A stretch of DNA of 64,000 nt from Psammoneis japonica (Eukaryota). The number at the start of each line of letters is the position of its first letter. The first letter of the stretch is position 1. The notes under the pieces were generated by a model. That model was not told the DNA's origin. It was given only the letters and a program-made list of their open reading frames with translations, and made no database searches. Location of the stretch: NCBI GenBank assembly GCA_008632985.1, contig QPGO01000175.1, positions 1-64,000 on the forward strand. Direction: 5' to 3'. Made by a program: the position numbers and the translations under genes. Positions 3,001-42,017 of the stretch are shown piece by piece.

Positions 3001-3394
3001 GCACAAGTTGGTATTGCCTTGTTCAACGTTGCCAAAGCCTAATCGAACGCCAACTTCATTGACGACAAACCAGCCTCAAGAACTAAAAGAAGATGGTGAC
3101 AATTGGCGTGGCCGGCCGCGACCAGCTTCTTGAGCGCACGCATTGATTGTGTTTCGTAGCTAGAATCAAACAACTGAGGCCAAAGTAGAATTCCGTAGCA
3201 GCATAGTAGTACAACGCCTTGATAGCAAATTCGTTTCCTGAATGACGAAACCACCTCGCAGAGAATTTGTAGCACCACTATTGCCTTTCCTGCCTTTCAC
3301 TTCAAAGCCAGCCTGTCTTGCACATGTGACATGCATGTAGAATGGACCGCGAGGTTGAGAATGATCTCGGCAACCCTCTTCGTCGCATTATTCT

Positions 3395-3988
3395 CTAACA
3401 CCACGAGCCTGGCAACAGAGAAGACATCTGTGATTCCCAAGAATATGCCCTCGCCCATTGCTCATGATACTGTTGATGCAATTGACTCTCCCGTTCTCGT
3501 CTACGCGAAGAGTATCGTTTTGCCACCTTCGTCAGCACGTCAACAGCATCAAGTGAGTGACACAAAAGCGCTGTTATCTTACAGAGGTCAACCCGAAAAA
3601 TACGTACATTGTGCAAAGAGGGTGATTCCAGAGCTTTTGGTAGTAAAAAGCGTTCTCGAATTCTTCTTGATTCCTCGCCCAGTGACCCTTCCTGGTAACA
3701 GGATCTGCGAACCCATCTCTCATCCATCCGCCTTTTTGAAAGCATATGACATTGTGGCGGTTGCATGTCTTCATCCCTTGCTTTCACAGCGCCGTCGGCA
3801 GGGAGCACGCATGATTCGCAATAAACCACAGAGCAAACGCGGCATCGCGTCAAGTTCAAGCCCTCGGGCTCGCATTGGTGGCACACCTCGCATCGAACTC
3901 CGTGCAACTTCTCCCCAAGAGGCTCTCGAGAAATCACTTTGTTGAAGTTTGGCGGACGTGGCGGGGGATCGGCTTCAGCTGGTACCAC
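3395..3988 (-). CDS. Hypothetical protein with a Cys-rich, zinc-finger-like segment
   Basis: 197-aa ORF containing CEVC...RCRVCSVVYCESC; true start uncertain; no family recognised. Confidence 0.3.
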   Translation of the reverse strand: MVPAEADPPPRPPNFNKVISREPLGEKLHGVRCEVCHQCEPEGLNLTRCRVCSVVYCESCVLPADGAVKARDEDMQPPQCHMLSKRRMDERWVRRSCYQEGSLGEESRRIRERFLLPKALESPSLHNVRIFRVDLCKITALLCHSLDAVDVLTKVAKRYSSRRRERESQLHQQYHEQWARAYSWESQMSSLLPGSWC

Positions 3989-6226: not shown

Positions 6227-6263
6227 CCTTATGTGTGGTATAAATTTTATAACGCACATAAGG
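6227..6263. repeat. Imperfect subterminal hairpin within a cluster of GCACATA(A/T)GG motifs
   Basis: CCTTATGTGTGGTATAAA-T-TTTATAACGCACATAAGG; related motifs at 6175-6187 and 6290-6307. Confidence 0.75.
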
Positions 6264-6499
6264 CCTCGATGACAATCAAGAGTCATCAGTTTATACCGCA
6301 CATATGGTCCAGGTTGCATCACACTTAGGTGCAGTCATTTCAATGTGAGATTTGAATCAAATTGGTCAATTCACGTACTTTCCTAAATCGGCGGTCCAAA
6401 GATCGACCTTTGGCTACGGTACGATGAGAGTAATGGCAAAATAAGGGCATCGACACATTACTTGGATAAAATTTTATGACACTGTGGTGTAATAGAAGT

Positions 6500-9400: not shown

Positions 9401-11143
9401 TCGAGAACTCAACATGTTTGTCTTTTGCAAGACAAGCTCAAGGGAGTCCATTGCAAGAATTCCTTTTCCACGGCTTCACTTTCTGTGGGAGCTCTTTGAA
9501 AACCTCTGGCCACAACCCACGGTCGCCACCACCATCACCTTCCACCCTTTTCAGTTCAGTGGCACCACTGTTGATTCTCACACTTTTGTGCTGATGAAAA
9601 AACGGCCTCAATTCATTGTCAGATTTGGCATGGGTCAAAAAGATTGAAGGTGACCACACCTCTGAGCGACACCGAGTCACACGTTGCAAGGAATGCTTTT
9701 CCGGATCGTTTCGATGCCGATGTCATTTTCGCGAACTTGAATGAATGATCACTGCTCTCCAACTCGTCTGGATGTGGTTGATGGCTGGCTTGAAAACATG
9801 GTTCTAGAGTGGCCATTGCCTGGTGACACACAAATGAAAGAGTTCAAATGAAAGAGTTGATGAGAATGACAGTGCAACGGCTGCGATTGACACCAGAGAC
9901 GAGAAACGCACCTGTGGATGAAGCGTCTTCAGGAGTCGTGGTTTCAGCAGCACACCATTGTGTTCACCCACAGAGTGAAAGGGAAAGAATGGCTGTGGGA
10001 CAAATGTGTCAGTTGCTGTGGCAGCGGACGAAAAAGCCGCACGACCGTCCACCTTGTCGGAAAGCACATCAAGATGCGAAAGGTCATCCTTCCAACACTG
10101 CGTGTGTTTTGGTTCATTGACGCTAGAGCAATGTGTGCCAAACAGTGTGCCCTTCACACACAAGTGAAGAAACTGGCACATCATTGACTCATGCATTCCG
10201 ATTCCACTGGCAGTGACAAGAAATGGAAATCGCTCCGAAACAACGTTTGGCAACTGCGACATGAACTTTGGATGGAACTCCGCAAACGTTCTGCCGCACC
10301 CCTGCTTGTTCCCATCCTCCCCTCTGCAACAAATTCTCCGATGAAGAACCCAAGCAGCAATCAAATGTAGATGCATTGGCCGACAACACCACCCATTGGA
10401 CTCAAGAGCACCACACTTGACGCAGTGGATGCATTTGTGCTCATTCAGAGCCAGTCTTGTGGATTTCCCATTGTGGCCAAATGAGTCAAAATGAAAAACC
10501 CATGCAGCCTCCTTTGCCCAATTAAAAGGATCAAGAGTTGGAAGTGACACAGCTGACAAATCAGGCGGATGCCACTGCTTGCCGTTCTTTCGTGCACTTG
10601 CATTGCTGGAGCTCATGACTGCACTCTTGACTCCTTCCAAGCAATTTGACAGCAGTGAGCCAGGCTGGGGTTTGCACTGAGATGACTCACGCTTCTTTTT
10701 TGTTGCTTCACTGATGTCATCTTCAGTGTCTTCATCGTAGTCTTCATCGTCGTCGCTAAAATGCGCCTCGTCATCGTCGTCGCCTTCCTCCTGTCCTCGC
10801 GCCAACCCAGCTCTGGCGATGTCTGCCGCTGCAGCGAGCCTCTCCAGCGCCTGAATTTGCTTTTCCTCATCACTCTTCTGTTTGTTAAGACGTTCTTGCT
10901 CCAGAGCCTCTTGTCTTTCCCTTGCTCTGGCTGCTTGCAGCTCCGCTGCTGCTGCTTTCTGCTGCTCGGCTTGTCGCTTGCGCCGAGCTTCTGCAACCGT
11001 CAACGCCGGCTCTGAGCATTCTGCTTTCGAGCCAATTCTTCACTTCGATCACACTTGGCTCCAAAAACAGTTCCTTGTCCTTTAATGTGGGAGACTGGCC
11101 TGCCAGATCCCTTTCTATTGCCGCCGCTACCGGTTCCGCCCAT
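6500..11143 (-). pseudogene. Frameshifted transposase-exonuclease fusion
   Basis: ORF pieces 9804-11003 (SQLPNVVSERFPFLVTASG, DUF6729-like), probable intron 9820-9911, then SDHSFKFAK, 7899-9296 (QKLCARLL..DKFSQNADW..LKEHAALD resembling the WRN/RNase D-type YAALD motif; DRFH) and 7409-7762 (LCRRGSNRSENLHQ); family assignment from motif memory. Confidence 0.65.
8341..8463. repeat. 63-bp in-frame tandem duplication inside the transposase
   Basis: GCAGTCGGTGCTCCCGAGT... at 8341 and 8404; protein repeats TEDSMEELAEGVDSGAPTA and TEESMEESAEGVNSGAPTA. Confidence 0.9.
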
Positions 11144-20859: not shown

Positions 20860-22260
20860 GACAATTTTACAAAAGGTTCGCCATGCCATGTCCCCCACAT
20901 GAAAATTAAAATTTCCAAATTAAGTGGGCGTACCACAGTTCTCGGCCCGTTCATTTTCTACGTGGCCTGGTACAACCCAAATCTGTGTAGATTCAGTACA
21001 TTTCGCCCTGTAGAACAGTTTTTGGGTGTGTTTTCTGGCTCGCGACGCAAAATAACACGCAAAATAACACGGACAATGGCGTTTCGCCGATTTCAAAAAT
21101 ACGGTTGTTTCTGAGGTACTTTGTAGTGTACTCTCAACGGAATATCACACGTCATAGCATAAGGTATGTGGTGAGCTCGAGAGTACACAGGTTCACATGG
21201 GTAGATCATGGTGAAATTTTGAGCTGAAGATTGGTGTTGACACCGCCGATTTTGTTGCATCAACACACAACTCATGCATCACCATTCATGCTGTGCATTT
21301 CGTTGAGTACTTGTACGCTCATATTCTTTCAACTTACACATATGTTGTCTTTCCTCATTGTTGTTTTGTTCTGTAGGGTCTCCCTTGCCATGGGCCATCC
21401 CTGAGAGAGAAATGCTTGCTTTGAATGTCACTTCTACCTTGCAACGGCCACGGCAGTCTGACGACAAGTCCAAGTCACAGATGCAGCATCCGGATGACTT
21501 CATAATAAATGTAGAAGCTTGGGTCTGTGGTGTCTGAAGATGTTCAAGCTCTTGGCAGCTCAGATTTGTCGTCGAGCAATTTTGACGCACATTTGACGTG
21601 CCTCCAGAAGGTGATGCGCAGTTTCATTCGACAGAGAAACGAGCCATGGCGATTGTGATGGCTTGCATTGAGTCTTACAGATACAAGGTAGTTTACAATG
21701 TGGAAATGTGTGACTCATTTGCCTCATCTGCTGAGCCTGTGCAACACATTTAGATGTCAAAGTCGGGGCAAATTGTGCACAATGCCAAGTCTCCAAAAAC
21801 AGCACAAGAGTGCAAGCCCAAAAGAAGAGTCAGCTTTGTAACTCATCATGGGAGTGTAGAGCTTATTTTTCTGGGGCATCATGTCTCTGTTGTTTTCATG
21901 GAGTGGACATTCCTGGTGTTGTTGCCGCCAACGTGCGAGCTTGCCTTGACAACATGTTGCACTGCACTCTGAGAGTTTGGAATGAAAAAACAACTTGCAT
22001 TTGCATCATTCTGTCATGGCAGAAATGCATGGGCTGTCCCTGGCCCTTTTGGAGAAATGGGGCAAGTGAAAGAGGAGCTACAGAAAGATGCGGACGATGC
22101 CATTTTGATGGATTGTCATCAGGTGGTGTGTCGAGAGGAGTCGTGATGGAGTGCCGCTTTGTGTTTTTGTGCTGCGTCCATGTGGGAATGTACGTGCTTG
22201 GCTCTCGTGTAGTTTCTACGTAAAAAGTGCACCAGGCGATCTCTGGACCGCCCTCTCAAT
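20860..22260. mobile_element. Unclassified decayed repeat-like segment with partial TpA loss
   Basis: TpA thins from about 21400 rightwards; TTCTACGT motif at 20956 and 22213 also occurs in the adjacent foldback; no recognisable protein. Confidence 0.35.
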
Positions 22261-22268
22261 GTTCTCTG

Positions 22269-22777
22269 ATGAGCCATGTGCAGGGGTTGTGAGTCCCGAA
22301 AAACAGGGTTTGGGCCGATTTCTGGTGCAAAACTCACGTAGAAAATTCGCGCAGAACATCTTGTTCGTCGTGCTTTTCCCGTGCTTTGCGAAAAATGGGC
22401 CACGACCTCAAGGAATCGATTTCAGTCACAATGGTTGGCACTTTGCGTACTTTCTTTTTGATGACAAACACAACGATGTCCACCGTTCGGCAAAATTCCA
22501 TCATTGGAAAATGTTTGCCGTGGTGGGACCGCAGTGAATTGTTGATCGAATTTCTGAAAATGGAGTTTTGAAGTGTTCACGCACAGAATCGTGTCACTCA
22601 TGTAAAAGTCATCATGCAAAGTGTCAATGGTTTCAGGGGAAAACGATTCCTTGAGGCGTCGGTGGAGCAGAGAAGCACGGCAGAAGCACGAGAAAAAAAT
22701 CGGCCCAAACCCTAATTTTTGTAATTTTTTCTACGCAGAATTTCTGCATGATTTTTGCACCAGTGCACATGGCTCAT
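22269..22777. repeat. Foldback or MITE-like imperfect inverted repeat (arms about 22269-22450 and 22613-22777)
   Basis: ATGAGCCATGTGCA/TGCACATGGCTCAT, AGGGTTTGGGCCGATTT/AAATCGGCCCAAACCCT, CCTCAAGGAATCG/CGATTCCTTGAGG and other mirrored blocks. Confidence 0.85.
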
Positions 22778-23299
22778 TGCATCCGATCGCCTTGATGAGG
22801 TTGGACAGTCGCAAGACCAGAGGTGCACAAATCATCTGTTGTCGTTCGCACACGCGCATTCGCACACTCAGCGCGCACGAACGACAAAACAATGAGGTGG
22901 ATCACGCTGGTGCTTCCGCCTGTCACGACGTGCTGCACCTCTAAGAATTTTTGTGGAGCGGAAAGCGGTTTCATGCCAAAATCTCACACAACAGCACGAC
23001 ACATCGAGAGGACTGCAGACAGCTCTGTGTCCACAGAAGAGCAGTGACACCTCAACCCAATGCTTCGCACCCAATCTGTTGCATCTGCTTCATTTGTGAT
23101 GGTGAGCAAAGATCAGCAGCACTCTGGGCAATGGAGAAAATTCACTGTTTGCACTCACACCTTCATCTTTTTTTTTTTGTGTTTGCCGTCATGCATTTCA
23201 GCGACAGCATCTCTCAGGATGAATGTTCCCCGGCAATTGTGCCTTCCCGGTGTCAAACATGTCCCAAGTGACAACACGTCAAAGGGGTCCTGCATTCTC

Positions 23300-23690
23300 A
23301 TGACTGTCAGTTGCTTGAGTGCGAATTGACTTGGTCGCATCCATCATTTCGGCAAAGCAAAATGGTGCGCATGTTTTGTCAGCGAGCTTGTCTTCTCTGC
23401 TTTCTGCGGTTTGTGGTTTGGAGCCACGTGTCAATGAAATGCTCTCATGGACTCCATTGTCCATTTCTTGCATCATTGCCACAGGACACAACTGCCAGTT
23501 GATTGAGTGCGAATTGGCTTGGTCGCATCCATCGCATTTCGGCATGACAAAATGGTGCGTTTTTCTCATGAGCAAGCTCGTCTTCTGTGCTGTTTGTGAT
23601 TTGTTGCTTGGATGGCATGGCTGCACATCAAGGAAATGTTCTCACAGACTCTGCTGTCTGCCACTTGTGCAATTGCCAAAGGAAACATCA
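23300..23690. repeat. About 188-bp tandem duplication in the 3' region of the P element
   Basis: TTGAGTGCGAATTG(A/G)CTTGGTCGCATCCATC at 23315 and 23503. Confidence 0.85.
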
Positions 23691-23864
23691 AGGCACCCAT
23701 TTGAAGTGGAGTGGGCTGTCTCGTGCATTTGTGGTCATGAGCAGGCGTCCACAGCATTGTGCTGTTCTTGCGGATGAGCTGTGGCATGGTTTGGACAGCC
23801 GTTTGTTGCTTCTTAATGTGTGACAATGAATGGCAAGGTGAGATTGAACTGTGCATTGTTGTCA

Positions 23865-26800
23865 TCATTTGTTCTTCTTTGCTGACATCGTCTTTTTTGT
23901 TTCCCCTTTTTGCCATGACTTTTGGTCCCTCCCGCAATGCAGTGTCCACGCTTTCGATGCACATCTGCTTGTGTGTTCCTCCCGAAACGAGTCAACCACT
24001 CGTGATGCTCGAGCTGCAAATGTTTTTTGGACAATGCAAACGAACAGTTGCTGCATGGCTTCATCATCACTTGCAGCATCACACACTGCATCAGGAATCA
24101 ACTCTGCGAAGTCGTTCCACAGCAATTCCATGGCCTCGTCTGCAAGTTTGTTGCATGCTGCAGTTGCGCTGTCCTCCCCCAGCTTCTTCATTGTGGCTTC
24201 ATTGAAGCAACCGCGAATTGCAGCAAGCAATGCAACCCGAATGCAAAAAACTTGGGGGACACCAACGTGCAATCCTCTTTTCCGGCGCGGCCGCGAGACT
24301 TGTCTTTGAGCTTGAGCATCTTGGGATGCACCATTTGTTGAATGGATGGCGCCACATTTCTCAACTCCATTTTGTCTGTCACCATCTCATCAAGCATTGC
24401 TGCTGCTTTCTTTCCACTCTCAGAGTCTGCTTCAAAATGATTGCGTGCGTTTGCTGTTGCCCAGCCTGGGAACCACATCACCTCCTTGTTTGCATCCTCC
24501 TGAGAAATGGCATTTGCAGATGAGGCAATTGCTCCCCATTTCTTGTTGTCTTTTGCTGTGGCTTTCTCGACTGCTTCATCAACGCTTCTGGGTTCTTGGA
24601 AGATTCCATCCTCCATGGCATCGTCCAGAGTTTGCACAAATTCTTCTGCAAACCAAGAGGCTGCGAAGTCGACAATCAGGGCGTGGAATGCCAACAGCTT
24701 TTTGGGCTTGCCATCTTCGGCCGTTTCTGCCTGCAGAGTGTTTGGGAGCCTGGAATGGCAAGTGTCCATCCTTTCCATGTCTGTTTGTAATTTGTGCACT
24801 TGAACCATGAAGGACCGCTCAACTCCGCGCCTTCCAAACTTCTTGCATCCTTTTCCATCTCTCCCCAAAGGCACTGACAGGCTTCATGGAAGGCTTTTTG
24901 TTCAGCTTTGTTCAGTCGACACAGCGCTTGAAAGTGATGTTCTTCTTCAGTGCCAACTGCCAACTTGGCATGCTCTGTGAAGTCAACATCGCTCAACATC
25001 ATGTCATCGCACCATGTCCTGCTTTCCGTGTTCATTCTGTCCAGCACCAACTTTGTGCCTTCACTGCCTTTTGATTTGTTTGTTTCGATTTGTTGTCCAG
25101 TGGACAAATCCAGGGTGTGAGTCGAGTTCCTGGCATTCCGATCCTGCAGCCATTGGTTCACCGTGGTGGCGTGTCTTTGTTTGTCTGTGCGATTGGTGAG
25201 GTCATCGCCCGTTGACTCGGCTCTGGTGACGTCTTCGCTGTCGCACATGGGATTTCCATCCAAGGCTGCAAATGCCTTTTGTGAGTCCACAATTCCTGTT
25301 GTGCTTGGGTGACTCAGTGGCGTGTCACCTTTGTGTTGCCGGACAAGGGAAAACAGTGCTTCCAGAATGCTGGTGTTGGAGTGCAAGAATGGGATGAAAA
25401 CCTTGTCTCCCGCCACCTTCCACACAGTTTCCGCATGAACCATGAAACCGCAAACACTCACACGCAGTGCGTGACAAGTTTGACTTGACAGAAACCACCT
25501 TTGCCACTCTTTAGACTTGGAGTCTTTCAACTTTAGCTCCTCTTTGCCCTTCAGTTGCTCTGCGCGCCAATCACGAAGGCACTCAAGTGTCACTGCCACC
25601 TTGTCCTGAATGTTCTTGGGGGTGATTCGTGCAAACCTGTTCATGGACATTTCTGTGTAGATGTTTGTCATGTGTGTGAGAAACTCAAGAGTCATCACGT
25701 CTGACGTTGCTGTCTCAAATTGAGGCAGCTGAGAGCTGGCCACAGTGGATGCATCAATCTTCACAAACTGGTCCTTCAAATCGGTCACAGTCTGCACCAT
25801 GGTCTTGTCTGCACTGCTGGCAAACTGAGCTTCTGGGTGGAAAATTTGAAGCTCCTCAGACAGGTGGTTTGTGAGCTCATTGATTGTGTCAGAGTGAAGG
25901 ACTTGCTTGACCAAGTTCACATTCATTTTGTTCCACCTGTCAGGCTGCTCTGACTCGCGAGTGAGGGGAGTGTCTTGGATGCTTTTCTTTTGTTCTCTTT
26001 TGTGAATCTGATTGATCGTTGGCCAGCCAAAGTGAGTGCCATGTCGCTTGAAACTTCTTGGCAAAGATGAGTTGTTGGGCACCTCGCTTGAGCTCAAGAG
26101 AGCATTCCTTGATCCTTTTGCATTGTGGACCGCGCAAAAGAAGATGCCCACTCTTCAAGTTGGGTCAGCAGGGTTGACAAATGAGCACATGCTGTCATCA
26201 AGCCAAGTGTCTGTGTCCTTGGGAACCTTGCCAAGACAGAACATTTTGACACACCTGGGGTTGCTTCCCCCTGCATCAAGCCCAAAGCCAGCCACAACAA
26301 GCCCAGCAAGCTCACACCCAAGGATGGTCTGCTTGGTCTGGCGCATGAGCTCATCTCCCATCATTGCGCCGTTGCTGAAGAAGAACTCAAGTGGGTGGGT
26401 TTTGTTTGTCTCAGAGCACCTGAAAAAAAAACTGGTTGACGCAGAGAGAGATGCTGAAGCTGGCCTCTTTTGTGCTCTCCTCCTTGCCGCTGTCCTTGGC
26501 ACTCTCTTGCTCAACCAGGTTGTCTTCTGGCTCAACGTTGGCAACCTCCTTGTCAGTTTTCTTCACCAACGCCAGAACCTCATCAGCCAGCTGGATCCTG
26601 TCTTGGTCATGAGCAACAACAACGCCAGTGCAGACAGAGGTCATTGGGTTGAAGCAGAAGTCAGATCTCAGCTTGAGTTGATCACAAAGAATTTGGCCAA
26701 CCACCTTCTTGCAACAGCCACCTGTGAAGGCATCTGCAGCCCATCTGCAGATGCTTGGGAACGTCCCCTCCTTGGGTGCCATGGCTTTCTTGACTCGCTT

Positions 26801-28300
26801 CAAATGTGGCACAGAAGGCATTGGCATGACTCCAGACTCACTCCAGTGTTTGCAGCCTTTTGGAGATTCAGCATGCAAAGCCAAGGCCATCCGCATGAGT
26901 TGGGGAGAGAAGCTGCATTGTTTTGGTTTTCCTGTGGCTCTCTTGGCAAAGTTGCAAATGGTGCCCATCAGCTCATCCACCATCTGTGATGCCTCGGCTT
27001 CCACCTGCTTTGACGGCAAAAGTGCACCCTCCATTTCTGCAATGTGCTTGACCACACACTCCAGGATCTTTTTGTGGACATCATTCTTGTTGTCTTCACA
27101 GCATTTTGCAGAGTCAAACAGCAAATCACGCAGACGGTCATCATTTGAGCCAATGTGGAGCCGGCTCTTGTCAGAGTGCATGAGTTTTCGCAAAGACTTT
27201 AATCTGCTTCTAACTTTCCTCAAGTTGGTTGCCAAGCTTGACATCTTGTTCTCCAGTTGCTCACGAGAACAGTGGCCGTGTCGGGTTGATGGGTGAATCT
27301 CTCCCACAGACTTGGAATCCATCTTACGACGCTTTGCGGATTTGTTGCATGTGCCACAGGACCCACAGTCACTGGTGTCTGTTTTTCTCCTTTGGACAAG
27401 GGAAAACATTGTGCAATTTGTTGTGTGCTCATTGAGACAACAAGATGAACACGGGCGCAAGTGCACTTGAGTGTTCTTTTTGTTTTTTCCAAGCGGCACC
27501 AAATCATTCTTGTCACAGCACTTGCAGCACAGTTTCACAATGGCCACAACATCTGGGTGGCACATGAACTCCTCATCACTGTCATTGTCCGTGGAGTCAC
27601 TGCTGTTGTTGATTATTTCTGTGTGCAAGGCACTCAGCTTGTGTGTGAGCTGCACAACAGAAGGCACCAATGGGCCAGTCCAACCGGCGGCTGCTGATGA
27701 AACCTCCTCCTCGGTTGCTTCTTCCATGTTGTTGCCTTCAATGGATTTCCTGATGATGGCACGAGCTGCTCGTTCTGAAGAAAACGAGTTTATGATGGCC
27801 TGCACATCCCCTCTGGAGGCAAGCGGCACTTGGACACATCCACACTTGTTGGTGCCATCCGTCATTTCCTCCAGCAACACACGCTCGGATTCATGCACAA
27901 TGCCCATGCTGCGGGCAGCATCCAAATCCATGGGAGCAGTGACATTTCGAAATGCACCCCCGGCACCAGGCAACGGATCCAACTCGATCTGCGCTCCATC
28001 CTCAGCAGCAAGTCGCACGGATTTTTTTACTCCACTCCTCTCCACCAACTTGAGGTAAAAATGGTGTCTCGCAATGACCATTTCACCTTTTCCCTTGAAT
28101 CCCTGTCCAAGCAACCGAATGAATGAAGCTCTCAAAGCAACAGCACCCGGCTTTTTCCCTTCTGGAACTCGACAATAACCCAACAACGGATGCGCAGCAT
28201 TGGTGGCAATGCAGTGCTGACCGATCTCTTTACAAAACAATCCGCAATCACTCCAATTGCATTGGCATTGATCACATGCAAGCAACTGTGACCTTGGCAT
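23865..28300 (-). pseudogene. P-element/THAP9-like transposase, frameshifted
   Basis: THAP-like N-terminus (CQCNWSDC...ARHHF), FSPQLMRMALALHAESPKGC...MPS, ILCDQLKL, GLDAGGSN, CAVHNAKGSRNAL, WNKMNVNLVKQVL, NTSILEALFSLVRQ across ORFs 26411-28477, 26155-26544, 24676-26151, 24188-24874 and 23865-24272. Confidence 0.85.
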
Positions 28301-28662
28301 GTTTTGGAGACAGTCTGATGTCAATGCGAGTGACAATGTTGTTGGGTGTGACAGAATGTGGATGCCGAGTGTGTTGTGCCGAAACGTTGCGTTGGAGGGA
28401 AATCGTGGAAATTTCGATTTCGCTCCATAAAATTTCTTACGGGTACAGCACGTCGTGACAGATCTTGCGTTGATCATCTACGCGCGTGATCCACCTCATC
28501 GTTTTGTCGACTGCGCGTTTGCGCGCATCGGGCGACAACAGACGATTTATGCACCGCTGCGTAAGATAGACCTCTCTAGGGCCTAGAGCAGGCTCTCCGG
28601 AGCCTGGGGGTTAGGGCCTCGGTGAGCGCCGGTTACCGCGTACATCAGTACCAAAACCTACG

Positions 28663-31252
28663 CAGGCCCTTTCTACTTAAGGGCAGGACATCATTCAATT
28701 ATAGACGATGAAAGAACATTTATTGATGACTTTTCAGTCACGATCAAAAAATGTCCGACAGTTTCACGTGACCCCTGACACTTAAGTGATCCGATGACGC
28801 GACGTTAAATGTTGTGAGACAACAAAAGCAGCGGCTTGACCGGCTTTTAGCCTTTCTTCTGGTACATTTTTCACTGGGGGTCTACACGGGAGGATGGAAA
28901 AATTGAAAACAAAAAATGCAGGGGCTATAGAGTTACAAAAACACAAAAAACACTCGACCTCCTTCAACCTCACGCATCTTCCGATGGGAGAGGTTGGATG
29001 CGACGCGATCTTTTCTTCGGTCCTTGGGAGCGGTCGACCTTACGGCGCTTGGTATCACTAGATTGAGCCTTGGAAGTATCATACAATTGTCTGAGTGACA
29101 TAGTACCTCTCTCCTCGTCAATCAGCCTTGCAGATTCCTGGAGTACAGCGGCACGGTCTGAAAAACCACGCACTCGCTCAGACCGTTTCAGAATCAAGCC
29201 ATACAGGTATGAACGACGACTGAGCTGCATAGTGACCCCACCCTGCCAATTCTTTTTGCTCACTCCTTTGTACTGTTCCAACTGAAACTCCAGGTGCTCC
29301 TCCAACAATTTGGTCATTGTCTTTGGCATTTCTTTTGGAAAGTATGGTTGAGTAGCACCTGACGGCGGCGGAGGCAGATGCTGAACGATGCGCGAGCGAG
29401 TTGGATTCGAATCCAATACGGTACGTGTCTGAATCGCATTCCGACTACTCACAGCCATTCTGATGCTCTGCATCTGCTCACGTTGCTGCTGTTGTTGCTG
29501 CTGGTTTTGCCTCAGAATAATGTTAGTGAAATTTTGAACTTCTGCTGACAGTCGATCCATTTTCCCAACCAGAACCTGTGTATCGGTACGAACCGAGGAG
29601 AAAGCTGTCTGCGCAGCAATGTTCAGATTTTGAATCTCGTCTTCTTCTGCAGTGTCCATATCAGCCAACTCTTGAAGCCTGTCCCTTGCCCACTCAATGT
29701 ACCTGCCGCCAAAAACACGAACCAATAGACGGGATACTTCGTGCTGCGGATACTCCGTGACCCAGTGGATACCGTCTTGGCACAGGACGCGAGCGAAAAA
29801 AGGTAAGGTCCCATATAAAAAGTTTGTACCGCATGGCCACTTACGACCAACATTGTGTTGCTGTTTCCATGCAGGCAGTCTTGGCCATATCATCTCTGCC
29901 AACTCAGTATCAGTGACGTTTGGTTTTCCGGGAACTAGTTCGCCGAAGGATATGTTGGTACGAGGGACGTAGTAAACCTTCTCCCATGCAGCTTAGAGAA
30001 CCCGGCGGCAATCAACTGCACTTGTGGAGGGATCTCAGGCAAGTATGAGACGTCAAGTGAATCTTTTCCATGCTTCGTCTGCTGCTCAATATTTTGCTTG
30101 GTCGCCCCGCCCATGTTGCTAGAATCGATGCCGGCGGTGCGAAGGTGAGCACACTTTGCCCACGACGTCTTTGTTGCCCTGTATACCCGTTGGTATGCCT
30201 TACGGTGCGTGTCTAATGTTTTCCAACCCACTAGTTCATACTTGTACCAGTCCGGGAAACCGTCATGTTGATGTATGAAGTGGATTTCCGTATCGCTATG
30301 AAACCTGCAGGCGGCGACGGCGGCGTTCATACCGGTTCCGCATCGCTTCCAGTCGCGGTGCCGCCACATGCCTGCAACTCTTTTTTTGTGGGAACCTCGT
30401 TTGCCTGTAAACCGTTGCTCAATCAGAGCTATCATTGGACGTGCGACCGATTCGTTTGGGTTGCCGGGGCCGTGAGTTTCGTCATAGTGAATATCCGCAT
30501 AGCGTGTAAGTCGGAGCTGATCGCCTCGTATCATGGTCTGGCTGCAGCTGGTCCATGACACTACCAAGTTCTTCCAAGCAGCAGATTGAATAATATAATT
30601 CAATATCTTATCCTCAGCAACACGAGACAGAGTATCCGTAGGCAGCTTGTCATGAGCTGATACAAACGTAGTGAGCAAATTTTGGGTGTATCGCTCCTTG
30701 TGTGCCACCAGAGCGACGTCAACTGCCTCTGATCTCACAACGAATTTTGGATTGGGAGGTTTGTGCTCCTCCCAAGATGAATAATGCTGCAGTGACCAAA
30801 TGACACGCTTGGCCGACTTCGGCGTGACGTCTCGTTTCGACACTACCTCCAAGAAGTACCGGTCGACCTGGTCTCGCGTCAAGTAAGGCGGCCCCGACAG
30901 AGCCGGCGATTCATCCACCCACCTTTTGTATGCATTCCACTCAGTGACATAAGTGCCATCCACCTTGGGTGGTGTGATGGTTTGGGCCAACAAGTCTCCT
31001 ATGGAGACCTGAGACGCCATCTTGGGTCTGTTCTGCTCATTATGATAGCCTCGAGGGATAATCTTTTGGGGTGCACCCACCTTACTATCAAAAGAAAAGA
31101 GGTTTTTGAAATCAAACGCTCACTTATGGCGTTCGATAAGTGGAGTCGTTTCGAATCATGTTGACATTCGAGTGGGAAGAAAGAACATTTCGATAAGTGG
31201 ATTTTACGTCTTGTCCTGTTCTGAAGGTTCTTATCTTCACTAACCACAGGCC
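28663..31252 (-). mobile_element. Crypton (tyrosine-recombinase DNA transposon); boundaries tentative
   Basis: Recombinase gene below; candidate 6-bp direct repeat CAGGCC at 28663 and 31247; normal TpA content. Confidence 0.7.
28970..31020 (-). CDS. Crypton tyrosine recombinase with GCR1_C-like C-terminal region; one frameshift near 29984
   Basis: IRGDQLR, CAHLRTAG, HGKDSLDVSYL, then AAGF...YYVPR...LAEMIWP once one base is restored, and PYFPKEMPKTMTKLLEEH. Confidence 0.8.
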
Positions 31253-34209: not shown

Positions 34210-37200
34210 ACTCGTTTGACAGCATGTTGCGCAAACTCCATCGAACACAGTTTCAAATCGGAATTCAGCAGGCACAAACGAAGAGAATCTGTGCTTTGTG
34301 CTTGATTCAGCAGCTCGCAATTCCTCTTGTGCATCAGTCAAGTTCACGTTGTGCGCGTGCCGAGGGCCGAGATGCATCAAGGGAGGGCACAGCGAGTCTC
34401 CATCGTCTTGCACAGGGTTTGTGAATGCTGCACCTCAGCTCATGCTGGCCACCATTGGAGATGGCACCACAAAGGGGCACCCAACTCCAAAGAGAAAGGC
34501 AGCTTGTTCTGTCAAGGTGACACACTGTCTGGGAGACAAGTTTGGATGATTGGTTGTTCATGGAACAATTCCCATCATGACAAGTGCTGGAGCACAGGGT
34601 GAAATTGTGGTGGAGCAGCACCTCCAAGATCTGCAACATGTTTCTTCACACAGGACAAGTCAAATGCTGCATCTGTCCCCGGCATTGTGCCAACCCTTTC
34701 TCACTCTGCCACAGCAGACATCCAGCAAGTCATGAATGGATGTTTTTCTTGTTGAAAGACTCCTTTTGGTTTGCAGAGCCAGTGTGCATTTTTGTTCAAC
34801 AAACCCCGGCCCAAGATTTGTGGGGAATTCAATGTTGACTGGGCTTCAGCCATCAGGTCATGTCATCCCTTCTTGTTCAGGGAAAAATTCGGTGTTGACT
34901 CAGCTTCAGCCATCAGGTCATTTCATTCTTTTGAGAACATTGGTTGCCAAATGATGAGGCCATTGCTCTTGTCTTCATCCAATGCATCTTGTTGTTGTGT
35001 CATGTCAGCCCGGGCTAGAGACCATTCCAGAACTGCAGTGAGCTTGTCAACACCCCCTCTTGCAACGACACTTTTGGCCCAAGAAGACAGTGTCTCCTGA
35101 CCCTGCCAACATCACTCGCCAATGTTTTTGCTGTGTGGACATTGTGATGGCAGGGTCTTGCCTTGCTCTGGTGCAACATGGCAGAGCATGCTGAAAATTA
35201 AAGCCAGCTTGTTTTCTCTTTGCTGCCATTCACCTTGGCACACAACACGCTCATGCTCATGTTTTTCCTGCCCCACCACATCTTGTTGTGTGGCAAGACT
35301 CAGCCACAGAGCATCATCTTGCACCAATGCGGTGCTCTCAGCCATGGCAGCAGCAAAGGCTCTCACATCTTTTGCTTTGCACAAGCAAGGTGTGGCATTT
35401 TTGATGTGCTGCACTCACCACCTCATTTCAGCCATGCTGGTGCACCTGGTGCAAAAAAAATGCCTTTCTCATGCACAATGGATTGCCCTTGTGGCCATTG
35501 CAAGCCAGTCTTGTCAGTCTCAACCTTGTTGCTTGGGCCCTTTCTCTCATCTGGAGCAGCCAGCCAAACTGACTGGTGTGGCCAATCCTCAGCTGGCTGT
35601 GTCAAGTTGCAGGTGTCTTGATGCATCAACGAGGTTGCTGCACTCTTGCAGTGTCAGGGCAAGTTGTCATTTTGAGCACCAAGCTGGAGAAAAAACTCTT
35701 TGCTGTTTTTTTTCATTTTCTTTGCTCTGCTCATTGTCTGGCAAATCTCCAACACAATGATTTGCTGTGTTTGTCATGCCCACACTTGCACCCTCTGCTT
35801 CCAAGGAGTCAAAATGCAGAAAACAAGCTGTTGTTTGCAAGAAGCTGAGGAAGATTGCATGGCAAAATCATCTTTCTCTTGCTGAGTTCATGATTTGCCA
35901 CCTTTCCTGTTGTCAAAATTTGCCTGTGCTGCTTGGCTGACTGGCGAAGAGCCAGTTGCAGGGCATGATCTAACAGTGTGGTTGTTGCTCTGTTGTTTTG
36001 GGGTGCTGGAACAAGGGCCACTGCACCATTTTGAGCATCAAGCAAAGAAATGCCAAAACAGTCTGCCACTTTGCACATTTTCTGCTCTGCTTGTTTTGTG
36101 GCAGTCAAATTTCCAGCAGCATGGTCATTTGCTGCACTCAGTTTGCTCTGTGCACACCGCACATTCGCTGCTCTCATCCAAGAACAAACTGAAATTTGGG
36201 GAGCACACATCAAAAATCAGCCAGGTGGCTCCGTGCAATGTTCACTCCACTGACTCTGGCAAGTGCTGTGCCTGCAGATGCACGTGTGGTGGTTGTCTCT
36301 CAGGTGACAACAAGGTGCATGTGACCCAAGAAGAAGTGCACGTGCAAGACTCACCATGATGCTCCTCACTGTGCTGAGTGCAGGAGGCTGGCGCAACCCA
36401 GCCACATGAGGTTTGGTGTTGTCTGCAGCTCTGCAAATGAGCCAACCATGATCATTGCCAGCAAGACTGGCTCAGGAGGATTTCCAGGCTGGCAGCATCA
36501 GTGTCTGAGCATCAGCGCAGGGCAAGGGAAGTTGGCTTGTGCAATTTTCTGCATGTCGAGTGCCGCAGCACAAAGGTGCATGTCAAAGAAACAAAAAGGC
36601 AATGTGCGCAACCATGTCAAGATGTCACATCATGGCATCATGACCAAAACTTCTTCTGCCATGCATCACATTTTTGTTTGTGCCTTTTGGTCAGAAGCAG
36701 CTTCCACTTCTTGAGGCACAGCACGCAATTTTTCTGTCCAATGGAGCTGCAAGGCAGAGTCTTGAATGTGAGAAGAGAGAGCCAAAAGCCAGCTCTGTGC
36801 ACAGCAGCAGCAGCAGCAGCAGATGAGGGCCAGCGGGCAGAAGCAAGCTGGGGGGGGCTCAGCTCAAGACAACATTCCTGTGTTGTTGCACATGCTTTGT
36901 GCCAACATTTGTCCAGTGTGTGAATGAATGTCAGGAGGGCCAATGTTGTTTGCTCCACACCAGCATTTATGTGGGCTCCTCACTCAGAGAGAGACACACA
37001 CAGCAAGGTGCCCCCCCCCCCCCCCTCTGTTCCATGTGGAGCTCTCATGTGGCCTTTTGATCATCGTCTTTGTCAGCATTGTTGTTGTTGTTGCAGCATG
37101 ATGTGCTGGGACACTGCCACCATGGTCAACACAAGCTGTTGTGGTTGCTGCTGCTGGTTGCCGAAGAGGTTGCAACGATTTTGAGGGCACGGCAATGCGT

Positions 37201-37300
37201 CTGAGCCTGTGGGCAAGCGGCGTGCTGGATGGACGAGTCAGTCGTCGAAGTGCCTGAATCAGAATCATTCGACTAATCAGGTGGCTCACGACTGAAAAAA
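34210..37300. other. Heavily decayed tract lacking TpA and most CpG (old TE or duplicated gene relic)
   Basis: TG/CA-rich sequence; 60-bp tandem duplication at 34826-34930; no recognisable domain. Confidence 0.6.
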
Positions 37301-37517
37301 AGTCCTCGACAGACGTACTGACACATTACCAGAGGCCGCGTAGATCGCACATACATAGATTTGTAGTTGTTGTCCAGTACAAACACGCGATGGTGAGTGC
37401 ATCACCAACGAAGCACGAGAGAGGCCAAAACAGCAGGTTGTTGTTTCCAAGAAGCACTCTGACGGTACTGTCAATGATCCATCCCATGAAAGAGCATCAC
37501 ACACAGAACGTCTAAAT

Positions 37518-40500
37518 ATGCCTCAATCAGACCTTCCAGAAGAAGATGAAAGACCGATCGTTGACGCTGTTCCAATACAGGAAGAGCAATATCAGCCGCC
37601 ATCACGCGCACTGATGCGCAGAACAATTTGGTTGCCTACTTTTTTGCTGCTTACTTGGGCGTTGGCAATGCAACAAGAGCATGCAGCTGCAGTAGCGGTG
37701 GCAAATAATGCAGATGTTGACAGAACACTTCCTAGAGAAAGCGAAAGGAACGACAAAAATTACCATGAGACGGAAGCATGGCGATCTGGCAACGAATTGG
37801 AAGAGTATCACGATTTCAGCGATGAATACAGACGAGGCGGAAACGACAAATTGATGAACGACGACAGTGACGGAGACAAAAATGAGGACTCTGTTATTGT
37901 TGTGTCAATGGTGGATGGTTCTATGGCGGGGCTTTCGAGAAAGACAGGAGCAACGATATGGAAGCAAGCGCCTACGGCAGGCAATGAACAGCCGAGCTCC
38001 TCGTCCCCAGCTGCCTCCGGTGATCGTCCTGACGAATCATCATCACAACACATGCGCCCAAACAAAGAAAGCAGAAAGAAGCATGAGAAATCAGACCCAG
38101 ATAGAGGACAGATCCTCAAACCACTGGTATCAACGTCAACAACTACAACCTCCTCCTCCAGCGGACAAGATTGGAAAACAGGCAAGTGGACTAGCGAAGT
38201 GACGGAGCTTGTAACCGTGTCTCTCAAAAGTGCCTCACATCTTCCATGTTTATATACTTCTTATACAATAGCGGCGGTTCCGTCGGTGGATGGACGGGTA
38301 TACTTGACGGCCGGTCGAGACGCCAGTAGTGCTCCATCTTCAACCGAAGTTCACGGCACAACAACTGTGCGGGAGCTTGTCTCGAGAGCTCCTTTCGCTG
38401 ACGAGCGAGGCAGATTTTATGTTGGTTCTCGTCAAGCCATCGCTGCAGCTTTAGACCGTGACACGGGTGAAGTACTGCGAGTAGTTTCTGGATCCACAGC
38501 AGGCAGTGAAACTCAAAGCAATGTCCTGGAGGGTCGCAATGTACTGTGGGTGGGGCGTGTAGATTACAGCGTCTCAGTCTATGACGCGCGCACGGGAGAG
38601 ACAGATGTTCACTTCTCAGCATCGGAAATCATGAGTGTTAATGACATGATCCATGGGAAAACTGAATTGGCGAGCAACCAAGAAATGCGACCTGCAGGTG
38701 CGCATGGTAGCTCCCAGCACGCACCTCGGCTGCTGCTTCCCAGCGGCGGTGGGACCGAATCGTTTCTGTCCAAGGCAAAGACTTCGCTCATAGTGGCGAC
38801 TCCCAATGGAAATGTAGCGCTTCGAAATCCTGATACCGGACAGATCGAATGGATTGCCAACGAGACGTTTGACAGTGCCATTGCTTTTGCTGTGGAATCA
38901 TCAAGCGGTTCATCACTTGGTGTAGACATTTTACCTGATGCTACTGTCCCCAGTTCGTCTACAGAATATTTATCACGGGAGTTGGAGCGACAGGCAGAAG
39001 CACTAGACAACCGAGGTAGCAATGATAGTTTTGATAACGAAGAACAAACTATTGTGGGATCGCTGGCAAGTGGTGAGCTGTTTGCCATGCCACTAGGCAG
39101 AAGACAGACGTCGGTTTCGTGGGCCTCGACCCTAGGCTTACCGCAGTCTCACTCCATCGCCTCTTCGTCATCGGCGGTGGGAAATACCAAGCAGATGGTC
39201 ACAGTGCCGAATATTCTAGGGCGTCAGCACTCGCAGAACTTGCAGCAGCAGCAGCAGCAACACGACCCATTCCAAGGCAACCGACAGAACCGGAAGGGGT
39301 GCAACCCATCCAGTTTGGGATTCCCTGGCTGTCTTGTTGGCAACAGCTATCAAAAGAGAGACGATTTTGCGAATGCGTTTTTACACCAAGCGACACATCA
39401 AGCAAGACCTTTAGCCGACAACTCGGTTGCCCTTCCTTACCATCCCGGGGTGGGCTTCATACCACCCGAGGAATACGCTCAGAATATCGCACATCAGAGT
39501 CTCATTCGTACTTTTCTCCGCATCATGGCATCGTGGTTACCGCCCACAATGGCATTGATTTTCGTGTTGTCATTTGAACTCGGACGTCGTCAGCGAATCA
39601 AGGAAGACAGGAAAAAGGAAAAGAAGGAACGAGAGAGTGCAAGTTTGGCAGCTCAGCGTTCGTTGCCTAGCAATGGCACAACAGATGAACACGAAGGACT
39701 CGCAGAGAAAACTACTAGAAGTATCGGGGTGATTCAAGTTACAGAGGAAGTGTTGGGCTATGGTGGACATGGTACGGTTGTCTACAAGGGAATGCTTGAT
39801 GGACGCAAGGTTGCGGTGAAACGCATGCTTGAGGCCTATCACGCAAGTGCCGATCGAGAGATATCCCTTCTAATTGAAAGCGATGGCCATCCAAATGTCG
39901 TTCGATACTTTTTGAAGGAAGTCCGAGGAGATTTTGTGTATTTGGCACTTGAGTTGTGTGACATGTCTCTTCATGACTTGATTTGCGCGCTGGCTTCTCG
40001 GAGGCCTAGTAGTGACGACGAGGACGATGTTATTTCTTCTGCGACAAAGACGACATTGCATCAAGTTGCGTCCGGTGTGCGACACCTACATTCCCTGCGC
40101 ATCGTTCATCGAGACCTCAAACCAATGAACATTTTGATGCAAGCCCAGTCAAAAGGAGAAACGGAGGAAACAAACGCGTCTACTGACGATTTCTTCCCTC
40201 TTTTTGAGAAAGGCGAATACATCGCCAAAATATCTGACATGGGACTCGGGAAACAACTGGCAGGACAAAGTAGCTTCGGAATCAGTACGCTCGCTAACAC
40301 CTCAATCCAGGGCGCCGCCAACGGAGGAGCCGAGGGCGCGAACATTGTTGGTGCTGGGCCCGGTAGTGTTGGATGGCAAGCACCTGAAGTTATGGCCCTA
40401 CGCTGGTCTCCGGAATCGGTTCCTTCTAGGACCGACGGAAGCTCGATGGGCGGTACAGACTCGCTTGCAGAGGCCTCTCCTATTGAGGGAGGGATGGCCA

Positions 40501-42017
40501 ATCGAACCAGTAGATCAGTTGACATCTTTTCTCTTGGCTGCATCTTCTACTGCACTCTAGTCCCAGGATCGCACCCATTTGGTGAATGGTACGAGCGAGA
40601 GGCAAACATCATGAGAAACAAGCCAAATGTGGAACCTCTTTTGAAGCTATCAGCCGAGGCCTACGATCTAGTTCGGTCTATGATTCACCGTGATCCCAAG
40701 TCCCGCCCCACAGCAAAAGAAATATGCGAGCACCCTTTCTTTTGGAAGCCTTCGAGGCGTCTTTCTTTTCTATGTGACGTCTCTGATCGACTGGAATGCG
40801 ACGCTCTGCGAGAGAGCAACGAAGAAAGTTCAACGCCCGATTCGTGTTTCAAAGCGCTAGCAATTGAAAGGAATGCGACACAGGTTGTTGGTACTGCGTG
40901 GGACAAGAAGATTGATCAAGACCTCAACAACAACGTTTCGCGTTTCAGGACGTACGATCCATCATCTGTTCGTGATTGCCTTCGAATGATTCGGAACAAG
41001 CATCATCACTATGATGAACTCCCTGCTGAAGTCAAGGAACGAGTTGGCTCCAACCCTGATGGTCTTTTGCTCTACTTCGAGAGGAGATTTCCACGTCTTC
41101 TTATGCACTGCTACTCTACTTGCCGTGAATACTTGTCATCAGAAGATTCACTATCGACAAAGTACAAGATACCACAACGGAAAGGAAGAGAGAGAGGGGA
41201 GGCGGTAACAAAAGTTCCACGCGCAGATCTTGACGAAAAAGAGAAACGGAACGAGAAGGATGAGGTTCCAGAGATATCGGGAACCTACGTGCTACTGGCG
41301 GAAGAAACGACTACCGAGGAGAATTTGACATTGGTAGAAAACGTGTCCGGCGATGAAGATAGAGAGTCATTACTCGCCGGTAGCTCTCCTCGGGGGGGCC
41401 TAACAGACAAGGAGCACATTCTTTCCGAAGCAGAACCTCGATGCAACACGCCGATTCTAGTACCTTCTGCGACGTTATTGCCATCCACATCTGACGACGA
41501 GCACAAACAAGATAGAGCGTCTAGCTCTTTGGATGAGCCTATGCCTGCAATTGTCGAATATCCTCAAGACATCATAGTTTGGGAAGCTAGTACTGCTGCA
41601 AAAACTCTGAACTGCCGTGGATGGATGCGATCAACTGATGAATGGGTGCGAAGAACCGACGCGAACCTTAGAAAGCGCGACGCGAACGTTACAAGATGCG
41701 CAGGAGATGCAAAATTTCGTACTCGATTGTGCAATCACTGGGACGTGAGCATGGGCACATTCTGTCCCATGAGAAGAAAGAACAAGTGTGTTTTTGCGCA
41801 TGGTCCTGTAGAGCTTCGAGTTAAAGATGGCAAGAGACAACGATGGGGCAAGCTAGTTGACAAGAACGGAAACAACTCAAATCCAAACCATTCAGGCGGC
41901 GAGGACACGTACGGTGCAGCACGTTCGATTGAAACAGTTCGAAAAGAAGAAGGCAAATGGAAAACAGATAGAAGAGGGAAAAACAAAGGGAGACAAGGGG
42001 CGGCGAAGAAGAAATGA
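37518..42017 (+). CDS. IRE1: IRE1 kinase/endoribonuclease with C-terminal CCCH zinc finger; probable 90-nt GC-AG intron 38182-38271
   Basis: Signal-like segment from Met at 37614, luminal domain, TM, LGYGGHGTVVYKG, DGHPNVVRY, HRDLKPMN, ISDMGLGK, KEN domain (DCLRMIRNKHHHY). Confidence 0.93.
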   Translation: MPQSDLPEEDERPIVDAVPIQEEQYQPPSRALMRRTIWLPTFLLLTWALAMQQEHAAAVAVANNADVDRTLPRESERNDKNYHETEAWRSGNELEEYHDFSDEYRRGGNDKLMNDDSDGDKNEDSVIVVSMVDGSMAGLSRKTGATIWKQAPTAGNEQPSSSSPAASGDRPDESSSQHMRPNKESRKKHEKSDPDRGQILKPLVSTSTTTTSSSSGQDWKTGKWTSEVTELVTVSLKSASHLPCLYTSYTIAAVPSVDGRVYLTAGRDASSAPSSTEVHGTTTVRELVSRAPFADERGRFYVGSRQAIAAALDRDTGEVLRVVSGSTAGSETQSNVLEGRNVLWVGRVDYSVSVYDARTGETDVHFSASEIMSVNDMIHGKTELASNQEMRPAGAHGSSQHAPRLLLPSGGGTESFLSKAKTSLIVATPNGNVALRNPDTGQIEWIANETFDSAIAFAVESSSGSSLGVDILPDATVPSSSTEYLSRELERQAEALDNRGSNDSFDNEEQTIVGSLASGELFAMPLGRRQTSVSWASTLGLPQSHSIASSSSAVGNTKQMVTVPNILGRQHSQNLQQQQQQHDPFQGNRQNRKGCNPSSLGFPGCLVGNSYQKRDDFANAFLHQATHQARPLADNSVALPYHPGVGFIPPEEYAQNIAHQSLIRTFLRIMASWLPPTMALIFVLSFELGRRQRIKEDRKKEKKERESASLAAQRSLPSNGTTDEHEGLAEKTTRSIGVIQVTEEVLGYGGHGTVVYKGMLDGRKVAVKRMLEAYHASADREISLLIESDGHPNVVRYFLKEVRGDFVYLALELCDMSLHDLICALASRRPSSDDEDDVISSATKTTLHQVASGVRHLHSLRIVHRDLKPMNILMQAQSKGETEETNASTDDFFPLFEKGEYIAKISDMGLGKQLAGQSSFGISTLANTSIQGAANGGAEGANIVGAGPGSVGWQAPEVMALRWSPESVPSRTDGSSMGGTDSLAEASPIEGGMANRTSRSVDIFSLGCIFYCTLVPGSHPFGEWYEREANIMRNKPNVEPLLKLSAEAYDLVRSMIHRDPKSRPTAKEICEHPFFWKPSRRLSFLCDVSDRLECDALRESNEESSTPDSCFKALAIERNATQVVGTAWDKKIDQDLNNNVSRFRTYDPSSVRDCLRMIRNKHHHYDELPAEVKERVGSNPDGLLLYFERRFPRLLMHCYSTCREYLSSEDSLSTKYKIPQRKGRERGEAVTKVPRADLDEKEKRNEKDEVPEISGTYVLLAEETTTEENLTLVENVSGDEDRESLLAGSSPRGGLTDKEHILSEAEPRCNTPILVPSATLLPSTSDDEHKQDRASSSLDEPMPAIVEYPQDIIVWEASTAAKTLNCRGWMRSTDEWVRRTDANLRKRDANVTRCAGDAKFRTRLCNHWDVSMGTFCPMRRKNKCVFAHGPVELRVKDGKRQRWGKLVDKNGNNSNPNHSGGEDTYGAARSIETVRKEEGKWKTDRRGKNKGRQGAAKKK

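Follow-up and report, generated by a model that had tools for sequence, protein, structure and literature searches.

The stretch of DNA analysed here, the window, comprises 64,000 bp (positions 1 to 64,000, forward strand) of contig QPGO01000175.1 from the assembly GCA_008632985.1 of the diatom Psammoneis japonica. At 22818-28559 it holds a decayed DNA transposon of 5.7 kb, which is assigned below to the P superfamily and which lies for most of its length in DNA almost free of the dinucleotide TA. The account that we favour, at a probability of roughly 0.78, is that a P-superfamily element inserted with an 8-bp target-site duplication (TSD) and that the silenced domain around it then decayed in place by two transition processes. 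The original prediction for this locus had taken the terminal inverted repeats and the two TSD copies as the evidence for the direction of mutation. The direction proposed there stands overall, but mainly through a test on tyrosine codons, the mass balance of dinucleotides and paired CA-versus-TG differences among contigs; the repeats and TSD copies turned out to be a weak witness, and two of their sites were contradicted. Here we present a description of the element, of the zone in which it lies and of the evidence for direction and timing, together with a comparison with known systems.

Structure of the element

The element is bounded by two ends in inverted orientation. In the left end (22818-22963, forward strand) a terminal inverted repeat of 27 bp (22818-22844) is accompanied by a small hairpin (22839-22887) and a subterminal repeat. 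The right end (28418-28559, reverse strand), whose terminal 27 bp are 28533-28559, overlaps the start of the transposase frame. In a self-blastn comparison 22818-22963 paired with 28559-28418 at an identity of 71.8% over 156 columns, and 24 of the 27 terminal positions were identical in both ends. A degenerate terminal pattern of 23 nt occurs in the window solely at 22822-22844 (+) and 28533-28555 (-) and had no match in 100 shuffles.

The left TSD copy, CGCAAGAC, occupies 22810-22817 and abuts the left terminal repeat, and the right copy, CGTAAGAT, lies at 28560-28567. A duplication of 7 bp (CGCAAGA) had originally been proposed, a length that has to be corrected: the geometry of the ends demands 8 bp. 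Target-site duplications in the P superfamily are 7-8 bp long. The two copies agree at 6/8 positions, with C on the left and T on the right at both mismatches; the chance of at least six matches in eight is 0.004 analytically and 0.005 empirically.

Run X1, the only DNA sample compared, contains 64% of the 31-mers sampled from the stretch and may be the source of the assembly. The transposon family is multi-copy and includes deletion derivatives, because 10 contigs of this run begin their likeness to the element exactly at 22818, with flanks that are all different, and because an internal-deletion derivative exists. In that derivative, an X1 contig, 22872 is joined to 27417 with 21 other letters in between. 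Another X1 contig represents a short derivative, which past 22876 leads directly back into the inverted terminal repeat. In its left part, which is non-coding, the element contains a tandem duplication of about 190 bp (23303-23687), the units of which (23303-23490 and 23491-23687) are 75% identical. An inverted match of 19 nt between 21353-21371 and 22879-22897 was judged to be due to chance.

Transposase gene and classification

Two long open frames on the reverse strand are pieces of one broken transposase gene. The first, P0001 (688 aa), spans 26414-28477 and the second, P0002 (492 aa), spans 24679-26154. P0002 has 170 relatives in the representative library at E<=1e-3 and 52 at E<=1e-10, and in a local phmmer comparison P0001 matched the long homologs of P0002, e.g., P0079 at 4.8e-58 (in a small database). 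PF21787 (TNP-like RNase H N-terminal domain) exceeds its cut-off in 13 of the 26 long homologs that were scanned, and one of the 26 also carries PF12017 (P-transposase HTH domain). A cluster look-up of 10 homologs yielded no names of use.

A direct Pfam scan of the frames of the element gave no match at E<=0.01 and two weak rows at E<=10. In the best of these direct comparisons, residues 36-105 of P0002 resemble PF21788 (TNP-like GTP-binding insertion domain) at E=0.2 and 12.5 bits, under the cut-off of 24.8. The Pfam THAP domain had no match in P0001, the first 30 residues of which show, by eye, a Cys pair and an F-P-R-F-P stretch. A word-index protein search with P0001 returned no match, and neither did a PDB sequence search with the homolog P0023 at E<=1.

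With respect to the marks of the P superfamily, terminal inverted repeats are present at both ends of the element, and a TNP-like RNase H transposase is indicated by the homologs of P0001 and P0002. The designation 'P element' given in the original prediction is correct at the level of the superfamily, as judged from the homologs that carry PF21787 and the one that carries PF12017, although the relationship is very distant.

The TA-erased zone

The core of the TA-erased zone spans 22733-28028 and holds 12 TA in 5.3 kb, with TA-free gaps of up to 1542 bp, an observed/expected ratio of 0.26-0.55 for CG and of 1.65-1.84 for CA/TG. The element as a whole contains 20 TA, whereas about 249 would be expected. 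The zone begins about 1.3 kb to the left of the element (near 21500) and ends within the element, about 130 bp short of the right terminus. From about 21500 on, TA density declines gradually across the left boundary; it is near zero at 22733-28028 and then tapers. In the left shoulder (21512-22732), which is element-flanking DNA with TA partly lost, the number of TA per 200 bp drops from 10-12 to 1-5 and CG is near normal. The right taper (28029-28427) lies inside the element and has only three TA (28056, 28176 and 28231) in about 400 bp. The last long TA-free gap ends at 28428, where normal density is regained 130 bp inside the right end; the right copy with its TA thus lies outside the depleted zone, as had been proposed.

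The window contains five such zones, which together have 62 TA in 21,647 bp (2.9 per kb). The background, taken as DNA at a distance of more than 1.5 kb from every zone, contains 1207 TA in 27,801 bp (43.4 per kb). Over all zones of the window the observed/expected ratio is 0.00-0.12 for TA and 1.55-1.99 for CA/TG; in the background that of TA is 0.5-0.9. Per kb, the zones differ from the background by -40.5 TA, -33.6 CG, +40.0 CA and +35.5 TG, so that the loss of TA and CG (74 per kb) is nearly equal to the gain of CA and TG (75.5 per kb).

Survival of TA in the zones varies with the neighbouring bases, from 0.7% at RTAY through 3.9% at one-sided sites to 27% at YTAR (chi-square p = 7e-22). 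When the two strands are modelled with independent rates, A followed by a pyrimidine is preferred 3.8 to 1, and a survival of 4.4% is predicted at one-sided sites, compared with the 3.9% seen. In tables of 4-mer flanks, which are confounded by mutation at neighbouring sites, TG is more frequent than CA in pyrimidine-flanked contexts. Five TA remain in the right end (28428, 28438, 28444, 28479 and 28548), all of the fast or one-sided classes. Because these classes are erased fast inside the zones, the five survive by their position and not by their sequence context. The single TA of the left end, at 22942, lies in the slowly erased context CTAA (YTAR).

The left flank is repeated DNA, with a depth in run X1 of 2000-6300 compared with 640-780 in the right flank. 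It includes a foldback element (22269-22777) that resembles a miniature inverted-repeat transposable element and has the nested inverted repeats I1, I3, I5 and I6. This element ends about 40 bp from the insertion site and has the highest depth of the stretch, 4600-6300, versus about 650 in single-copy flank. In its repeat I1, inspected by eye, each arm has TA where the other has CA, and the arms appear to have lost different TA. Loss of TA and loss of CG are uncoupled at 22001-22965 (observed/expected 0.18 for TA and 0.98 for CG). The left end of the element retains 14 CG in 148 bp; the zone at 53-60 kb has a CG observed/expected of about 0.1.

Direction of change

At ten columns of the transposase alignment Tyr is the most frequent residue of the homologs (a plurality of at least 35%), and the element keeps Tyr in 0/10 of them. 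The replacements are His (CAY) in three columns, Cys (TGY) in four and Phe in three. Other conserved columns are kept in 186/302 cases (Fisher p = 9e-5 versus the Tyr columns). Tyr accounts for 0.4% of the residues of P0002, compared with about 3% in its homologs. Position arithmetic assigns the three Tyr codons left in P0001 to the TA at 28428, 28176 and 28056, each of which lies in the right-hand taper.

Of the differences between the contigs of run X1 and the assembled sequence, 40 of 666 rows were listed. Of the 31 in-element rows listed, 16 form eight adjacent CA-versus-TG doubles, each at one dinucleotide; among the remaining in-element rows, 10 are CG versus CA or TG and one is CA versus TA. 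Such doubles would be expected if each copy had resolved one and the same ancestral TA or CG on its own. The original interpretation is partly supported: its proposal that in the zone copy TA became CA or TG, and CG became CA, stands, though largely through data other than the two ends and the TSD copies. The direction is shown in the body of the element and, by way of a third copy of the end (see below), at 22828, at 22912 and at three CG sites.

Comparison of the two ends

Both ends were read and aligned, and all six site pairs listed in the original prediction are present. Within the element, CA at 22828-9 is opposite TA at 28548-9, CA at 22936-7 opposite TA at 28444-5 and TG at 22952-3 opposite TA at 28428-9; at 22833-4 and 22890-1 the left end has CA and the right end CG. 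In the flank, CA at 22812-3 is opposite TA at 28562-3. The four in-element sites outside the terminal repeat sit in well-aligned blocks and do not depend on the placement of gaps. A further TA site, absent from the original prediction, with TG at 22911-2 and TA at 28479, is alignment-dependent. The assumption that the ends were near-identical at insertion finds support in the terminal 27 bp, the one stretch that behaved as if the ends had been the same when the element inserted, but not beyond; over about 150 bp the identity is 71.8%, with indels and numerous transversions. Subterminal repeats of a DNA transposon make a poor molecular clock.

Three-way polarisation was based on L001, a sediment-metagenome contig of 1132 bp and the sole third copy of the end that was found. 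The degenerate terminal pattern had one match in metagenome contigs (L001), 0 in prokaryote genome contigs and 0 in viral contigs, and a two-block pattern search for further family copies in metagenome contigs had 0 matches. Ten changes are unique to the left end: TA to CA at 22828, TA to TG at 22912, CG to CA at 22834, 22877 and 22891, and five others. Thirteen are unique to the right end and include 28445 and 28428, which are the counterparts of the left sites 22936 and 22952. Within the terminal 27-mer, for which the majority of the three copies was taken as ancestral, the left end departs from it at two positions only, once by TA to CA and once by CG to CA, and the right end at one, by a transversion.

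The derivation of CA from CG at 22833-4 and 22890-1 is borne out by this comparison, as L001 places the change in the left end at 22834 and 22891. The claim that TA was lost from the left end fared less evenly. It is upheld at 22828 but, on the evidence of this one copy, contradicted at 22936 and 22952, where L001 carries the left state (C and TG, respectively), a finding that the original prediction had itself named as refuting. Parallel loss of TA in L001, which would remove the contradiction, is unlikely because L001 retains GTAC, which belongs to the fastest-erased class. Two indels, too, are common to L001 and the left end: L001 lacks the 10-bp insert of the right end and has the longer hairpin. 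Only about 170 bp of L001 resemble the element end; the rest (292-990), an open frame of higher GC content, is unrelated to the transposase and resembles, by eye, a glutamate-synthase-type FMN domain. The contig may be a chimera or a solo end.

The differences at 22936 and 22952 are better read as an older asymmetry between left and right, or as ordinary transitions in the right end. Extended to the whole pair, this reading becomes the alternative that survives best, namely that the differences between the ends and between the TSD copies are mostly old asymmetry plus ordinary drift, the pair being silent on direction even though the TA-erasing process is real. Its strength lies in the low identity of the ends with their indels, in the state and the two indels that L001 shares with the left end, and in the number of non-signature differences (26 of the 34 columns in which the ends differ and all three aligned copies have a base). 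Moreover, the right-end TA at 28428 is part of a Tyr codon, so that there is coding constraint on this end and none on the left one. Asymmetry of this kind does not explain, however, why, over the terminal 27 bp, the left end departs from the majority solely by a TA-to-CA and a CG-to-CA change, why signature changes make up 5/10 of the left-unique and 1/13 of the right-unique changes, or why surviving and converted sites obey the flank rule measured over the whole window. The three one-sided sites of the pair have the product given by that rule (CA at 22828 and 22812, TG at 22952). We therefore regard this alternative as possible but unlikely. The pair itself is a weak witness to direction, clean only in the terminal 27 bp, contradicted at two subterminal sites and without an outgroup in the TSD.

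Besides the two sites at which L001 has the left state, several findings weigh against the account favoured here. L001 is a single low-coverage metagenome contig, the remainder of which is unrelated to the element. The contrast in signature share between the ends reaches p = 0.05 only, and the polarity count of the site pairs is just 4 to 0 (sign test about 0.06, one-sided). The TSD is imperfect at 6/8, and its second mismatch (22817 C versus 28567 T) fits the TA-to-CA/TG signature in neither direction and requires a non-signature transition. None of 15 joints listed, out of 31 in run X1, skips 22818-28559 as an empty-site allele would, and the divergent, roughly 95% identical contigs of that run may be other copies or the other haplotype of the locus. 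As the left flank is repeated DNA, its loss of TA may reflect separate targeting and not spread from the element. Finally, all three His replacements of Tyr follow T, where the flank rule favours Cys; the rule is a rate preference and predicts the product only statistically.

Timing of the change

According to the original prediction the change happened in place after insertion and not during transposition. This is supported by the gradient of TA across the left boundary, by the end of the zone inside the right end and by the CA-versus-TG doubles. The TSD adds the difference between CA on the left and TA on the right, seen there without an outgroup; a change in place is suggested because the left copy came into being with the insertion and yet now reads CA opposite the TA of the right one. 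We infer that this difference arose by the TA-erasing process.

It could be argued instead that the element was stripped of its TA elsewhere and was then moved by a transposase acting in trans, the loss of TA in the left flank belonging to the neighbouring repeats. That flank is indeed of high copy number and contains the foldback element, and non-autonomous derivatives of the family exist. However, TA falls smoothly over the left boundary and recovers inside the right end, that is, at neither end of the element, and the CA-versus-TG doubles imply changes later than the separation of the copies. As host DNA generated by the insertion, the left TSD copy also has CA where the right one has TA. 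Transposition after the loss is thus improbable.

In Neurospora and other fungi, repeat-induced point mutation (RIP) changes C to T at CpA and enriches TpA in repeats. A RIP-like change at CpA/TpG that created TA in the right end and outside the zones would reverse the direction proposed here, and the polarisation of the right end by L001 as gaining TA at 28445 and 28428 is in its favour. It is contradicted by the conserved Tyr codons that are now His or Cys codons inside the zone; in addition, the background shows no excess of TA (observed/expected 0.5-0.9), and ordinary genes sit in TA-normal DNA. A reversed direction is accordingly most improbable. Just as improbable is an artefact in which modified bases in silent DNA, which the palindromic TA and CG could both carry, were misread in sequencing or polishing, since the X1 contigs over the zone are equally TA-poor and only 1/31 in-element rows listed restores TA, evidence that is not independent proof as X1 may be the source sample of the assembly.

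Proposed mechanism

The favoured account would run as follows. A cut-and-paste transposon of the P superfamily, 5.7 kb long, inserted in the diatom genome and generated a target duplication of 8 bp. Two context-specific transition processes would then have degraded it in place, acting on a silenced DNA domain and not on the element as a unit. The first, T:A to C:G at TpA yielding CpA or TpG, would have removed about 92% of the TA of the element and 93% across the five zones of the window; the second would be ordinary CpG decay to TpG or CpA. The domain takes in the repeated DNA on the left, the left copy of the TSD, the left end and the larger part of the body, and fades 130-530 bp inside the right end, next to an apparently expressed gene. 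The left end and the left TSD copy would carry CA/TG where the right side keeps TA/CG because the domain covers the former and fades inside the latter.

The domain ignores the boundaries of the element, reaching into host and repeat DNA to one side and sparing the transposon's last 130 bp on the other, which speaks for chromatin state, and against sequence homology, as the basis of targeting. The edges of the zones would accordingly be set by chromatin state, not by sequence. If so, a transposon that straddles the edge of a domain is a natural before-and-after experiment.

As to the agent, the flank rule points to a DNA-acting adenine deaminase that would work faster when a pyrimidine comes after the A; the pattern could equally fit a process acting on the T of R-T-A. 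ADAR-type enzymes act on double-stranded RNA and prefer a 3' G. ADAR-type editing of an RNA intermediate was rejected, as the element is a cut-and-paste DNA element, flanking DNA outside it was also hit and the fast context has a 3' pyrimidine. TadA edits the anticodon loop of tRNA-Arg in the context U-A-C. The fast target in the zones, A after T and before a pyrimidine, resembles this context. TadA/ADAT2 have been proposed as DNA editors by Mettrop et al. (bioRxiv 10.64898/2026.01.13.699255). It is tentatively suggested that diatoms have a mutator of the TadA/ADAT2 type that works on whole silent chromatin domains rather than on recognised elements, that converts TpA to TpG or CpA in place and strand by strand, about 3.8 times faster with a pyrimidine after the A, and that has acted recently enough for copies, or perhaps the two haplotypes, of one transposon to have diverged by several percent through independent choices of CA or TG. 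Independent strand rates together with the flank rule provide a biochemical fingerprint by which candidate deaminases can be tested.

Other features of the window

DNA outside the zones holds ordinary eukaryotic genes at normal TA density. Among them is a ferrochelatase whose best named relatives are all diatom proteins; the closest, with 84% identity, is from Asterionellopsis glacialis. A protein atlas comparison with the chaperonin gene of the window yielded no informative taxon. At 29203-29291 a contig of run X2 lacks 87 bases bounded by GT..AG, and X2 covers mainly the right flank (29.0-29.5 kb) and one bin at 21.5-21.8 kb, with almost none of the element. X2 may accordingly be cDNA-like, with a spliced and expressed gene immediately to the right of the zone edge. 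A second zone edge also adjoins a gene: the zone at 34210-37274 ends about 85 bp ahead of an open frame (37359-42017) for an IRE1-like kinase/RNase. In the TA-erased zone at 6655-11083, an open frame of 512 aa (7899-9437, reverse strand) contains a 3'-5' exonuclease domain (PF01612, E=1.6e-10) and may be the remnant of another mobile or viral element.

Comparison with known systems

The element shares with the P-element/THAP9 superfamily (PF21787, PF21788, PF12017) its terminal inverted repeats, a probable target duplication of 8 bp, transposase relatives that carry TNP-like RNase H N-terminal and P-transposase HTH domains, and the existence of internal-deletion derivatives. The ends of the Drosophila P element are 31 bp long. 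Those of the diatom element start with CAGAGG and comprise 27 bp, followed by looser inverted similarity over about 150 bp. The diatom element is further distinguished from the Drosophila P element by its great distance, as neither frame in the window reaches a Pfam model directly, and by a gene product that would measure about 1200 aa.

With fungal RIP the diatom zones have in common that transitions in specific contexts inactivate repeated or mobile DNA, that the changes leak into adjacent DNA and that sharp compositional domains result. In its chemistry RIP is the mirror image, since the zones destroy TA and enrich CA/TG. A RIP signature, i.e., an excess of TpA and a deficit of CpA/TpG, was looked for and rejected, the ratios in the zones being the opposite.

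A full-text literature search for TpA-erasing hypermutation returned a single description, the preprint on Bigelowiella natans by Mettrop et al. (bioRxiv 10.64898/2026.01.13.699255). In this chlorarachniophyte de novo T:A to C:G mutations occur exclusively at TpA in integrated viral DNA, and a genome-wide class of TpA-poor, CpA/TpG-rich windows is described; diatoms are not mentioned in the accessible part of the preprint. As far as that part goes, the two systems agree in the change itself, from TpA to TpG or CpA (in the diatom, the Tyr columns, the mass balance and the sites 22828 and 22912), in its restriction to foreign or transposon-like DNA with adjacent genes spared (2.9 versus 43.4 TA per kb in the window) and in a long-term signature of low TpA and high CpA plus TpG in clustered windows. 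The enrichment of reverse transcriptase and DDE endonuclease domains among the TpA-poor coding sequences of B. natans is a further likeness.

The systems differ in the kind of evidence, as new mutations were measured in mutation-accumulation lines of B. natans, whereas the process in the diatom is deduced from sequence. They differ also in extent: erasure reported for B. natans is partial, TpA being 1.8-fold low in the giant-virus region, compared with 2.9 versus 43.4 TA per kb in the diatom zones. The diatom further shows CpG decay in most zones, a measurable flank rule (TAY fast, YTAR slow) and zone edges that do not follow the ends of the element, and its host lineage is not that of the chlorarachniophytes. 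A TA-erasing signature in a diatom, far more complete than that of B. natans, would make TpA erasure a widespread form of genome defence in algae and not a curiosity.

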